DNA of 64,000 bases from Octopus vulgaris (lineage: Eukaryota), in the NCBI GenBank assembly GCA_951406725.2, contig OX597819.1:81344001-81408000 (forward strand). The letters are read 5' to 3'. The notes beneath the pieces were generated by a model, which saw nothing but the letters and a program-made list of their open reading frames with translations, was not told the DNA's origin and searched no databases. Of the stretch, positions 8,796 to 62,315 are shown in pieces (within the stretch, counting starts at the first letter, position 1; each line of letters opens with the position of its first letter). The position numbers were made by a program, and so were the translations under genes.

Positions 8796-9675
8796 GTGAA
8801 ATTATCATATAGCTGCTGCCCCAATATGAAGAGTATCATTACACGTGGTCAATACCAAGAGCTTGACCCAGGATCCTGTCCACTTTACCAGCAATGTATG
8901 ACTAAATCTATTATATATGAGGCAGAAGTTACTGCAACCTTAAATAATAATACAACTGATAAGAATACCTATATTTGATTATGTGAAGGTGAATTTAAAA
9001 ATCGCTATGCCAATTACATAACCTCCTACCGACGTGATGACAAAAGTAGAGCTACTAAGTTAGCTAGCTACGTATGGACTTTGAAAGATAACGAAATACC
9101 GCATGTGTTTAAATGGAAAGTAATTGAGAAATCCATACCTTACGTGAATAAATCGAATAAATGTAGACTTTGTTTGGGTGAAAGAGCGCAGATCCTGTTC
9201 AGATTTAAGATCCCTAGCTCTCTGTTGAACTTCAGGTCAGAAATTGTCAGTGGTTGCATGCATATGTATAAGTATATTTTGAAGAATTGGAAAATTCTGC
9301 CTATTAATGACTAACTTGATATCTTTCCAACCTTATCATTTAAGGTCTAAGGAGGATAGCTCTTTTACCTTTTTAATTTTTACATTTTAGTTTCTCTTTT
9401 TCGTTTCCCGTTTTCCGTTGTTTACTGTCTGCATTTTTTGTATGCTGCCGTCTCAGTTTTCTCGTATTTTTTCAGTTTTTTCGCGTTTCTTCTATTATTC
9501 AATTTCTTTAGTTTGTTATGATATGTGGTTTGCGCCTGAAGAATATGTTTGAGTTTTCTCAACATATGAAACTATTGGTTGCGCTTTAATACATGCATTA
9601 TAACCTTTAAATAGATATTTATCTCTCTCCAGAAGGAGTACATCTTTTTTAATTTTCTATACGGATCAGTACATC
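8796..9675 (+). mobile_element. 5'-truncated Penelope-like element, Naiad-type GIY-YIG endonuclease plus 3' UTR/pLTR
   Basis: One frame 8796-9314 with a single stop: KLSYSCCPNMKSII...CPLYQQC.TKSIIYEAEV...TYI*LCEGEFKNRYANY...TKLASYVWTLKD...KWKVI...CRLCLGE...LLN.RSEIVSGCMH. Ends at (TA)n. Confidence 0.85.
9532..9584 (+). ncRNA. Type I hammerhead ribozyme motif in the PLE 3' end
   Basis: gcgc CTGAAGA atatgtttgag-tttt-ctcaacatat GAAAC tattg GTT gcgc: stems I, II and III all present. Confidence 0.75.
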
Positions 9676-9797
9676 ATATATATATATATATATACTATAT
9701 ATATACACACACACCTATAGTTACATTAGGCTTTAGTCATAATTGATAAAGCCTCTAAGCATGTTGCTTCAGCCCGCTAAACGGAGGATTTTAACAT

Positions 9798-10111
9798 AGG
9801 CGCAGGAGTGTCTGTGTGGCAAGTACCTTGCTTACCAGCCACATGGTTCTGGTTTCAGTCCCACGGCGTGGCACCTTGGGCAAATGTCCTCTACTATAGC
9901 CTCGGGCCGACCAAAGCTTTGTGAGTGGATCTGATAGATGGAAACTGAAAGAAGCCCGTCGTATATATATATATATATATATATATATATATATATATAT
10001 ATATATATATATATATATATGTATATGTACACGTTTGTGTGTTTGTCCCCGTAACATCGCTTGAAACCGGTGCTGGTGTGTTTACGTCCCCGTCACTTAG
10101 CGATTCGGCAA
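9798..10111 (+). mobile_element. SINE family A (tRNA-derived, internal (TA)n/(TG)n), 3'-truncated
   Basis: ggcgcaggagtg.ctgtgtgg.aagta.cttgcttacca.ccacatggtt...gaaactgaaagaagcccgtcg(TA)n...; many copies in the window. Confidence 0.85.
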
Positions 10112-10425
10112 CTACAATGCTATCATTTTTTGTTTTTGTTTTTGTTAAAAGTATTCTTTTCAACTGTCTACAAACACAGCAGGCTGAAATAATTAATGCA
10201 TTCTTTCAGGAGATAATAAAAAAAATTCTCAAACTTGAGGGAATGGTCTCCTTAGATACTAACATAGGTCCCCATATATGGATTCTAATGGCGCAGGGGC
10301 CCACTTGCTATCGGACAAGCTGACAACCAGGCCAGTCCGCCACTGTATGTATGTATGTATGTATCTATGTATGTATGTATGTATGAGTATCACTGGTTTG
10401 TATTACTAATTTTCCGTCTCTCAAT

Positions 10426-10600
10426 ACCTATTTCTTTACTACCCACAAGGGGCTAAACACAGAGGGGACAAACAAGGACAGACAAACGTATTAAGTCGAT
10501 TATATCGATCACAGTGTGTAACTAGTACTTATTTAATCGACCCCGAAAGGATGAAAGGCAAAGTCGACCTCGGCGGAATTTGAACTCAGAACGTAACGGA
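10426..10600 (-). mobile_element. SINE family B, long-tail subfamily
   Basis: Reverse complement of the core plus tail tttgtcccctctgtgtttagccccttgtgggtagtaaagaaatagg. Confidence 0.85.
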
Positions 10601-12129
10601 ACTGGTTGTTTAAAACCTGAACATTTTCTTCTTCACATCAGTTCATGTACTATCCATATAGTTGCAGATCTATAAAATAACCTTTACAGAAGAGAAAACG
10701 TAAAGAAAAGTTTCGATTATGTAAAGCGATTAAATGTAATGTATAAATAATATATCTGTTATGGGTACAAGTATTTAACATGTGGCACATCAAGCTATTA
10801 ACCATATCTCGATGAGTAGGTGGAACAACGTCTGGTTTAATGCTTCTCGTATCGCCAGACGAAGAAGTATTAGTATGGCGACGTGCTGGTTCGGTCAGGA
10901 AGCGTTAAACTTTTGGGTCTATTCATGACAATTCCTATTGAGTTGCAACAAAACGATCTTTATTTTATAGCAATACCAACCCCTGCGTGTCCTGCTCTTC
11001 GATTCAGCAACGAGTTGACTTTAGACTTCTTTTATTTACTGTTTTTCTTCATTTCTTTACTTCCCTCAGAATCGTTCTCAGCTTCATTTATTTCTGTATT
11101 TAATTCCCATTCGAAATCTTTTTTCAGTGTTGCAATCTGACACCTTCTCTCCCCAAATCTTACTTTCTTACTATCTATTTTCCATTTATCTTTCTTTCTT
11201 TCTTTCTTTCTTTCTTTCTTTTCATTGTTTCTTGAATCACTATATCTTCTCTCTTTCTGCTTTCTCTTTTTTTTCCCCTTGTTGTCCCCTTTTTCTACTC
11301 TACTCTACTCTCTCTCTACTCTACTCTACTCACCTGGTCATCTGCACACACATGCAGACAAAACACCTATATGAACACGAGCAGACAAACAGAAAAATAA
11401 ACATATATTTCTCTGAACGAAAAGCAAAATATGCAAGAAGTAAAAAGAAAGCTGCTTTCTGCCAAGAGTGGCGTGTGAAAATGTCATGACCACTTGGTTT
11501 CTGTCAAGGAGAAATGCTAGGCCCCATACTGTTTCTATTACATGACCACAATAGATCAGCACCGATAGAAACAGAGCGTCACACGCACACACTGGCCGTA
11601 GCATATGACGTCGCCATTAAAATAGCGGCGACAAGAGTAATTATTGAATTCTTTGCGGGGATGACTTTGTATCTCTTTAAAAACCAGTCAAATAACTGAA
11701 TACATTTTTAGATATGTTGCAAATTGAACCTGTCTCTTCTTCTTCAACGATCCATACATTCTATACAAGAGGGAATACTTTTGCTTCTTTCGATAGAAAA
11801 CGCTATTTTGATTGTTGCCGATATTGTGGTTTTGTTGTTGTTCTTATCGTCGTTGTCGTCGTCATCGTCGTTCTTGTTATTACGGTCGTGGCTGATGTTG
11901 TTATAGTTGTTTTATTCTGACTTCATTTCTAAAGTGTTTCTTAGCTTTTTCTGTAGGCTTAAACGTAAGCATATGAAAATGCGAATCTATGTAAGTATGT
12001 GAATTCATGCAATTCTCTATATACATATGTATTAAGAAGTGCTTGTAAAAATGTGCTTTTCAGTTAACTGAGTTTGTAAATGTGTATACGGGTGTGTACC
12101 CGTAACTTAAAATGCGACCCGCTGTGAAT

Positions 12130-60190: not shown

Positions 60191-60209
60191 CAACACTAAT
60201 ATACAGATA

Positions 60210-60370
60210 TACACAACGGGCTACTTTCAGTTTCTGTCGACCAGATCCACTCACAAGGCTTTGGTCGGCCAAGACTATAATCGAAGACACTTGCCCAAGG
60301 AGTCACGGAGTGGAACTGAACACGGACCCATGTGATTAGGAAGCAAACTTCTTACTATACAGCCATCCCT
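60210..60370 (-). mobile_element. SINE family A 5' half
   Basis: Consensus match. Confidence 0.75.
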
Positions 60371-60492
60371 ATATATATTTAAATATGCGTGTGTGTGTGT
60401 GTGTGTGTGTGTATAAACATATATATGTATATACACACATTCGTGTAAGAATATGTATGTATGTATGTATGTATGTATGTATGTATGTGTGT

Positions 60493-60738
60493 GGAAAAAA
60501 GTCAAGATAGAAAATGCTAAAATAATTTTATAAAAAACATTTCAGTACTGGTTTCAGTCATTGAGACTTTTTCAACTGTAAGTATAGGAAACAAATTAAA
60601 TTTTGGAAAAATTAATAGAAAAGTTTTTTAAAAGAATATTTGCATAGTATTCATATAAGAAGTGGCATTTTCCTTGTTTCTGCCTGTTTCTCTTGTATAC
60701 TCTTGTGAGTTCGAGGTCGCTGTGTTCCTATTCAAACT
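60493..60738 (-). mobile_element. Solo pLTR fragment related to the Neptune-type element at 33838-35540, with U3-A8 hammerhead motif at 60543-60578
   Basis: Aligns to 33875-34105; cag TTGAAAA agtc-tcaat-gact GAAAC CA GTA ctg. Confidence 0.8.
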
Positions 60739-61782
60739 CACACACACACACACACACACACACATATATATATATATATATATATATATATATATATATA
60801 TATATATATATGTATATATATATGTATATATATATGTATATATATATGTATATATATATGTATATATATATATATATATATATATATGTATATATATATA
60901 TGTATATATGTATGTATATATATATGTATGTATATATATATGTATATATATATATATGTATATATATATGTATATATATATATATATATATATATATATA
61001 TATATATATATATATATATATATATATATAAATATAACGGGCCTCTCCCGTCGTTAGACGACGTATGAGGGTTAGGCAACTGCTTGTCGAACAACCACAC
61101 AGATGATTTGTTGATCGCGATCAAATGTTTGTGTTCACATAAGCTCACTCCTTCCATCAAATAGACATTACTTTCACAGGTGAACCGTGTGCCACATGTC
61201 AGATGAAATGTATGCAGAGCAACATGAAATAAAGGGCTTTGCTCTCTTTCTTTCTCTCTCTTTCTCTCTCTCTCTCTCTTCATACACACATATATATATA
61301 TATTTATATATATATATGCATGTATATATAGGTATATATTAATATGCATGTATATATATATGCATGTATATATATGTATATATAGGTATATATTAATATG
61401 TATACATGTATAGATATATATACATATATATATGTATATATATATATGTATATATGTATATATATATATATATATATATATGTATATATATATATATATA
61501 TATGTATATATATATATATATATATATGTATATATATATATATGTATATATATATATATATATATATGTGTATATATATATATATATATATATATATATA
61601 TATATATATATATATATATATATATTATATATATATGTATATATATATATATATATATATATGTATATATATATGTATATATATATATGTATATATGTAT
61701 ATATATATATATGTGTATATATATATATATATACATATACATATATATATATATATGTGTGTGTGTGTGTGTGTGTGTGTGT
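60739..61782. repeat. Long degenerate (TA)n/(TG)n arrays
   Basis: Seen directly; source of spurious IY-repeat ORFs. Confidence 0.95.
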
Positions 61783-62315
61783 GAATAAATGAAAAGAATG
61801 GAGTTGAAGGAAGATTGTAACAAAATTCCTTTACTTTCGACATATGTTTCGAAGACTGCATACTCTTAATTCCGAAGGAATGAAGGTTGCATTATGCCGT
61901 CTTCTCATCAGGAAATACAAGGAACCCCTATCAGCCTCAAGACGAACAAAAGCTTCTTACCGTCTGCCTGAAACCATGTAGGCAGACGGTAAGAAGCTTT
62001 TGTTCGTCTTGAGGCTGATAGGGGTTCCTTGTATTTCCTGATGAGAAGACGGAATAATACAACCTTCATTCCTTCGGAATTAAGAGTATGCAGTCTTCGA
62101 AACATATGTCGAAAGTAAAGGAATTTTGTTAAAATCTTCGTTCAACTCCATTCTTTTCATTTATTCATATAAAAAAACACAAATTTCCACACACGAACAC
62201 GGGGTTCGGCCCTTGGCATGTAACTTCAACCGTGTTTTACTGACGTGAATTTGCTACCCAGGTATCGATTAACCGAATTATCAATACTAGGATAATTCAT
62301 TCATCTACTTAAAAT
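61782..62315. mobile_element. PLE-type insertion: 188-bp inverted repeat (61782-61969 / 61980-62167) plus 3' tail ending in (TA)n
   Basis: 4 mismatches between arms, 10-nt spacer. Confidence 0.85.
62032..62117 (+). ncRNA. Canonical-core type I hammerhead motif (mirror copy on minus at 61832-61917)
   Basis: tatttc CTGATGA gaagac...gtcttc GAAAC ATAT GTC gaaagta. Confidence 0.85.

Follow-up and report, generated by a model that had tools for sequence, protein, structure and literature searches.

A 64,000-nucleotide stretch of the Octopus vulgaris genome (GCA_951406725.2, contig OX597819.1, positions 81,344,001 to 81,408,000; hereafter the window, whose own numbering is used throughout) carries thirteen sites with the appearance of hammerhead ribozymes. 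These are the hammerhead-bearing pseudo-long terminal repeats (pLTRs) of about ten protein-coding families of Penelope-like elements (PLEs) in (TA)n tracts, of both Hydra and Neptune types, and the multiplicity of PLE families proposed in an initial annotation, made from the letters alone, is thus borne out. That annotation had also suggested that four families (15947, 45437, 56129 and 61782) may be non-autonomous, retrozyme-like RNAs. This part does not hold, as all four extend into an open reading frame (ORF) for reverse transcriptase and endonuclease (RT/EN). What survives of it is a fixed-length, ORF-less product of the 15947 family, present in about 1,500 copies, which an autonomous family most likely generates as a by-product. 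It is probable that the families are PLE pLTR ends and that these mini-palindromes arose when RT copied the 5′ untranslated region (UTR) of capped, uncut mRNA on both strands of the target.

Hammerhead sites and their (TA)n setting

Parsing of the thirteen sites by hand and against genomic copies leaves nine as complete hammerheads, some of them with weak helices, one as atypical and three as partial in the window (14492, 45686 and 56366), although the families of these three are complete. All four helix III palindromes named in the initial annotation are present; what it missed is that several seemingly partial motifs are complete once a long insertion in helix II is allowed for.

At 9532..9584 (+) lies a type I hammerhead with a CUGAAGA core, whose element stops at 9676 against (TA)9; helix III is degraded in this copy, where others of the family have ACUAUUAGU. 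Upstream of it, at 8979..9314 (+), is a remnant of the C-terminal GIY-YIG-type EN of a Hydra-type PLE, which was without a match in a Pfam search and aligns with the ORF of genomic locus L237 (tblastn 33.6%, E 1e-19). The 12201 site is the 3′ end of a Neptune-type PLE (12156..12329, +) with a minimal hammerhead (12204-12238) that has a CCGACGA core, a bulged A, ACGU as helix III and a weak helix I. The atypical hammerhead, 13036 (13153-13038), lies in the 3′ UTR of a Hydra-type PLE (12941..14140, −) and has a long loop within helix II, an additional A ahead of GAAA and a bulge in helix I; its core is CCGAUGA, compared with CUGAUGA in most of 30 loci. At 14492 only the 3′ half of a long-loop hammerhead is present (14490..14551, +), from a sister of the 61784 family. 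This site is a chimera in which an unrelated repeat (14405-14478) is fused to the 3′ half, without CUGANGA; GAAGAC at about 14435 was considered as the 5′ strand of its helix II and rejected, being part of another repeat.

Three sites share the U3-A8 core UUGAAAA. The 33924 element (33836..35301, −) is a 5′-truncated Neptune-type PLE with a tail and a hammerhead at 33964-33926; the 35444 site is the inverted pLTR arm of the same insertion (35278..35535, +), its hammerhead (35444-35482) having one helix III mismatch; and 60543 (60493..60740, −; hammerhead 60578-60543), a 71-72% relative of the 33924 family, likewise has one helix III mismatch. At 41265 a Hydra-type PLE is represented by its 3′ end and its tail (40447..41500, −), split by an interspersed repeat at about 40830-41210, with a CCGAGGA core in its hammerhead (41396-41263). 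At 45686 two pLTR arms stand head-to-head (45437..46066, tail 45894-46066), both cut off within loop II so that the GAAA half alone remains. The 56366 site (56129..56624, +) comprises an inverted short arm, a pLTR and a tail; its hammerhead (core 56366-56372) is degraded, helix III being gone along with the 3′ strand of helix I, both of them intact in the family. The 61832 and 62032 sites form a head-to-head pLTR pair of a Hydra-type PLE (61784..62314, tail 62171-62314) with CUGAUGA-core hammerheads at 61915-61835 (−) and 62034-62114 (+).

A strict hammerhead descriptor found 5 loci in the window, compared with 0.42 ± 0.76 (maximum 3) in 60 block-wise dinucleotide shuffles, and the other eight sites escape it because of bulges, mismatches or truncation. 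An Rfam scan gave no hammerhead among the best 150 of 226 matches, these being miRNA-like matches to microsatellites and hairpins. Helices I-III are kept among copies, with compensatory changes between families: helix II pairs as GGUC/GACC in the 33924 family and AGUC/GACU at 60543, and helix I as UUUC/GAAA in the 61784 and UUCC/GGAA in the 14492 family. The U3-A8 core is retained in 26 of the 27 core-spanning copies of the 33924 family. The copies are young, and conservation is therefore by itself no proof of selection.

Minimal hammerheads, palindromic helix III, the U3-A8 variant, opposite-strand pairs and TA targeting are already published (PMC4209133; PMC8557442). The available part of the former (Cervera and de la Pena 2014) also shares with the window a bulged base after A9, many families per genome and a spacing of 100-700 bp between opposite-strand pairs; in it no long helix II insertions are described, nor is a 5′ hotspot fixed at helix I. 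The long insertions measure 42 nt in the 61784 family, about 45 in the 14492 family, about 85 at 13036 and about 92-95 in the 41265 and 45437 families (about 92 in the 41265 window copy). They exceed the 7-17-nt spacer of a published core descriptor, so that such PLE hammerheads may be undercounted.

The host genome, of 2.8 Gb, is microsatellite-rich and (TA)n tracts are dense, 12% of window positions lying within 50 nt of one. Of 16 element ends, 13 are no more than 2 nt from (TA)4+, against a baseline of 1.9% of non-TA positions within 5 nt, and the remaining three adjoin imperfect TA/TG or TATG repeats; the earlier claim that most elements end at (TA)n is therefore sound. The usual insertion has two head-to-head arms, a tail on one of them and (TA)n on both flanks. 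Because each motif pair of the window has its members head-to-head, one on either strand, a tandem dimer cannot form in cis. Genome-wide, 944-2,565 candidates per family were seen at first look, figures that are not copy numbers.

Coding sequence of the families

Ten families could be tied to RT and/or EN sequence, the relative at 60543 not being included separately. ORFs had seemed absent near the motifs because the 3′ UTRs are 0.5-3.8 kb long and microsatellite-rich and because most copies are 5′-truncated. The 15947 family has a complete pLTR-ORF-pLTR arrangement in locus L520, with direct pLTRs 4.34 kb apart, further coding links in L231, L237 and L247, and 5′ ends in L498, L499 and L509. 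The 61784 family, the 61782 of the initial annotation, has a 693-amino-acid (aa) RT-EN reading frame in L195. In the 45437 family pLTR, tail and ORF follow one another in L331, where the tail continues into a frameshifted Hydra-type ORF and a second same-strand match lies 4.6 kb further; a fixed palindrome was considered for this family and rejected, the pattern of hits having come from the query's own inverted arms. The tail, which matches the 5′ region of the element, continues into the ORF in L005, L331, L498, L499 and L509. For the 56129 family, Hydra-type EN sequence occurs in one arm of L449, collinear with L124, and with EN at one locus this is the weakest link.

Among the other families, that of 14492 has its ORF in L442 and L440, that of 13036 the C-terminus of EN in 3 of 29 loci, and that of 41265 a coding link through L194 together with L191; the 3′ UTR of the last has two forms, represented by these two loci, with a deletion of about 1.55 kb between them. 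The 33924 element retains in the window the end of a GIY-YIG ORF (35301-34618, −; PF01541, E 5.6e-05), and near-full ORFs of its family are present in L337 and L338. The 12201 family is linked through L434, where the ORF ends about 2.75 kb upstream of the 3′ end. A homologue search gave 224 relatives, nearly all of them without a name.

Assignment to clades was by motifs, as defined in the available part of Craig et al. 2021 (PMC8557442), and by similarity; most families thereby belong to the Hydra clade and two, 33924 and 12201, to Neptune. The 15947 family has RWR, DKT and CxCX5C, and the 45437 family RWK, DKT and CxCX5C. Hydra-clade PLEs as described there resemble those of the octopus in their C-terminal EN, RW/DKT motifs, CxCX5C linker, and CxxC and CxH around a conserved E and N, as well as in pLTR hammerheads, (TA)n insertion, an inverted 5′-truncated arm and an optional tail. 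The window families differ in having 4.3-4.6 kb between pLTRs, with long microsatellite-rich 3′ UTRs, against generally <3 kb, tails of about 75-190 nt against 30-40, and several hammerheads with 42-95 nt inside helix II. The 61784 ORF departs further, with RW and DKT but no CxCX5C linker and with an Asn-rich insert. The 33924 and 12201 families have nothing unusual in comparison with Neptune-clade PLEs, sharing the CX2-5CxxC linker, GIY-YIG domain and microsatellite bias.

Long Asn-rich inserts between RT and EN are found in the Hydra-type ORFs of L195 (3870-5948), L194 and L331; N-rich inserts are known from rotifer Penelopes (PMC3846280, in part). A separate Neptune-type frame of 899 aa in L233 was examined as a partner of the 15947 family and rejected, as it ends in a hammerhead of its own and represents a nested insertion. 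On the reverse strand of L233, at about 1900-4950 from the locus end (contig C1, near 15.68 Mb), an open Neptune-type RT-EN frame of about 770 aa sits in the centre of a 15947-family insertion; its own hammerhead has a CCGAAGA core, AGUACU as helix III and a U.U at the base of helix II.

Mini-palindromes of the 15947 family

When 15954-16141 was used as the query, the best matches were nearly all one head-to-head palindrome of about 190 nt, 96-100% identical between copies, ORF-less, of fixed length, and made of one tailed and one tail-less arm. The window copy has its short arm at 15954..16009 (−), containing an intact hammerhead (16009-15959, the 15959 site) with predicted cleavage after 15965, and its long arm and tail at 16010..16141 (+). 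Because this query favoured the palindrome centre, copies were resampled by a tail pattern, which has 2,520 exact matches genome-wide (control 0). The 5′ ends were placed for 65 tailed copies, drawn from the earliest matches along contig C1 and comprising the first 30 together with most of the following 36. Counting the base that opens hammerhead helix I as position 0, 14 of these copies begin exactly at 0 and 28 at 0..+13, compared with 3 at -1..-149, 8 at +14..+107 and 26 beyond -150, an excess at 0..+13 with p 4e-27. In all 65 the tail is followed by (TA)n, and there are no tandem arrays.

The same hotspot is seen genome-wide, where 1,497 palindromes have position 0 as their centre, against 23 near the cleavage site, a ratio of about 65 to 1, and 2,092 arms, of two main upstream variants, read through; the palindrome and read-through patterns are unequal in stringency, and such ratios are approximate. 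Of 28 long copies, 26 have TATAAA at -29 and one at -30, the other being too short, and three full 5′ ends have TATAAA at -29, the hammerhead at 0..+50, the tail end at +136/137 and an ATG at +182/183. Minis and long copies occur on common subfamily backgrounds. Loose contig ends at the hotspot base are also present in sequencing runs of two organism labels, which speaks for presence only.

The junctions themselves carry a further mark. Among the first 100 of 152 rows, 89 distinct junctions abutting (TA)n were counted by hand, of which 56 keep base 0, the other 33 starting at +1 or differing at 0. Ahead of base 0 these 56 have G 32 times, C 9 times, T 8 times and A 7 times, more G than the expected 25% (p 3e-7). 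The read-through templates listed have T, C or A before position 0; a hand count found the non-templated G in none of 29 arms that end at the cleavage site. The window copy itself has the extra G, at 16010: its long arm opens with C16010, complementary to the extra G on the short arm. Both arms have an identical core variant in all 50 palindromes listed; 17 of these are perfect or have one substitution, 17 of the 22 remaining that keep AGCTTCC have G before it, and the commonest imperfect centre (12 of the 50) is the one expected from an extra 3′ C on one cDNA. The start reads G-T in 6 and G-G in 9 of the 89 junctions instead of G-A; a modified base next to the cap may have been misread, or TG repeats in the flank may be responsible.

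Origin of the mini-palindromes

From their sequence, the minis are likely to be run-off cDNAs of a capped 5′ UTR, produced by internal RT initiation. RNA polymerase II would start at the A that opens helix I (16009 in the window), making the hammerhead the first 50 nt of the mRNA. After a cut by the EN in each strand of (TA)n, RT would initiate inside the template, using the end of the pLTR (about +65) for one strand and that of the tail (about +137) for the other. The available part of the work on the anole Poseidon element PAc (Frangieh et al. 2024, PMC11167929) shows in vitro two such internal start sites bounding the tail, and cutting and extension of both strands by the PLE protein with uncut RNA as the dominant substrate; it concerns another clade, and neither a fixed mini-palindrome nor a cap G was found in it. 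Where the 5′-most sites are used, both cDNAs would run off at the cap and gain a C opposite it, and the two short cDNAs would join through the self-complementary AGCT to give a mini-palindrome. The same sites in the downstream pLTR would yield ordinary 5′-truncated long copies, and inserted 3′ pLTRs that keep the TATA box could supply short RNAs in trans. An extra G at the 5′ junctions of full-length L1 insertions has been ascribed to the cap (PMC11702581, in part), and TATA and Inr motifs in a pLTR, palindromes at inverted junctions and solo pLTRs are described for a rotifer (PMC3846280, in part). The rarity of cleavage-site palindromes makes uncut RNA the likely main template. As the minis lack a TATA box, and their transcript is predicted to fold into a hairpin of -96 kcal/mol that buries both ribozymes, they are probably dead ends and not replicating RNAs. 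The ribozymes are probably weak cleavers or protein-assisted, and cleavage is probably dispensable for integration.

Several findings weigh against this origin. The 5′ UTR of the 15947 family contains two or three upstream ATGs, and the arms are discordant in 1 of 16 scorable minis. The start is at the cleavage position in 29 of 62 arms examined, a weak and confounded signal; TA microhomology accompanies 24 of these starts, compared with 9 at another TA site, and a minority of cut RNA may thus be copied too. The hotspot is not general, since in the 61784 and 33924 families, with 30 arms each from unbiased sampling, 5′ ends are dispersed. Lowest-energy predicted folds are seldom the hammerhead. 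Terminal transferase activity of RT, or in part (TA)n(TG)n flanks, could have supplied the extra G. In the two main variants a TAG resembling a splice acceptor precedes +2, and in the Drosophila virilis Penelope an intron ends at helix I (PMC4209133, in part). These last points would suit a hotspot that is not a start at all but a stall or fold-back of RT after helix I, or a splice junction AG/CTTCC, with the G added by terminal transferase or drawn from TG flanks; so would its position exactly at a helix boundary and 4-nt palindrome, and self-priming has been proposed for PLE inverted junctions (PMC3846280, in part). Such an explanation is nevertheless unlikely, given a TATAAA at the expected distance, 29 cleavage-site junctions without the extra G, solo copies joined directly to (TA)n that share the start base, long insertions with unequal arms and no central palindrome, the absence of a comparable stop in the other hammerhead families sampled, and variants with CAG or AAG before +2.

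It is distinctly unlikely that the mini-palindrome is instead a self-propagating non-autonomous element, like a retrozyme or a miniature inverted-repeat transposable element, of few origins and now propagated whole by the PLE protein. Its fixed structure, high copy number and identity, and concordant arms would fit, as would locus L087, which has tails on both arms, and the variation at the centres could have followed insertion through hairpin instability. However, the minis have many junction types and several subfamily backgrounds in common with long copies, their outer ends match those of long insertions, and neither tandem arrays nor a TATA box accompany a transcript that would hide its ribozymes. 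The wider proposal, that several families are ORF-less RNAs spread through hammerhead dimer cleavage and circles, is very improbable. It is favoured by the 56129 copies, which are mostly short, with a tail that does not run into an ORF in 30 of 30 tail-bearing loci, and by the view that non-LTR retrozymes derive from PLE pLTRs (10.64898/2026.07.22.740005, in part). The links of all four named families to RT/EN sequence, through 3′ UTRs that are simply long, argue against it, as does their occurrence as inverted pairs and not as 150-450-bp tandem repeats. Non-LTR retrozymes (PMC7229834; 10.64898/2026.07.22.740005; both in part) do resemble the minis in being short, ORF-less and PLE-related with a type I hammerhead, and the base of helix II has a U.U pair both in an axolotl retrozyme and in the 15947 family. 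Yet retrozyme units are repeated head-to-tail in tandem and give rise to circles, whereas the dispersed minis have their arms head-to-head and start from helix I, not from the cleavage site; head-to-tail repeats are lacking here, the window pairs being inverted, and ORF-bearing forms exist.

If the minis are indeed copies of a capped 5′ UTR, they would be a genomic record of two-strand internal initiation in vivo, mapping the promoter to the base and showing integration from uncut RNA: thousands of natural 15947 junctions would single out one base as the capped start, with a ribozyme at the extreme 5′ end of the mRNA. A large share of the family's insertions would then be cap-marked minis, which would offer a route from PLEs to ORF-less hammerhead repeats. 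Both what PLE hammerheads do and how inverted and tailed ends come about are posed as open questions in PMC8557442 and PMC11167929. A tentative and somewhat doubtful extension is that the hammerhead, as the first 50 nt of a capped mRNA, serves as a switch removing cap and leader and not in template processing, the minis stemming from internal initiation. Cap-marked minis and long-loop hammerheads are variants not found in print: a literature search for the mini-palindrome, cap-G and long-loop features of PLEs did not find them, although the supplements of PMC8557442 may list families or hammerheads.

Further observations concern individual families and other repeats. The 61784 family has a weak 5′-end cluster (4 of 30 at -155..-165 from the anchor) that might be its own start site; a cluster near -155 first seen in a biased sample was set aside, as it is weak in the unbiased one. 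PLEs gather in common TA tracts, as at 35561-35641 (−), where a 12201-family 3′ end without a hammerhead lies tail-to-tail with the 33924 element across (TA)11. A Hydra-type RT/thumb fragment at 59634-60199 (+) is unlinked to the listed hammerheads, and a palindrome at 43180-43355, in which no hammerhead was seen, is centred on a (CA)n(TG)n tract. The window also contains two abundant interspersed repeats resembling short interspersed nuclear elements (SINEs), for example at 5223-5425, 27881-28302 and 30263-30657; one of the two has a central (TA)n, and one breaks up the 41265 element. We take these to be reminiscent of octopus SINEs.

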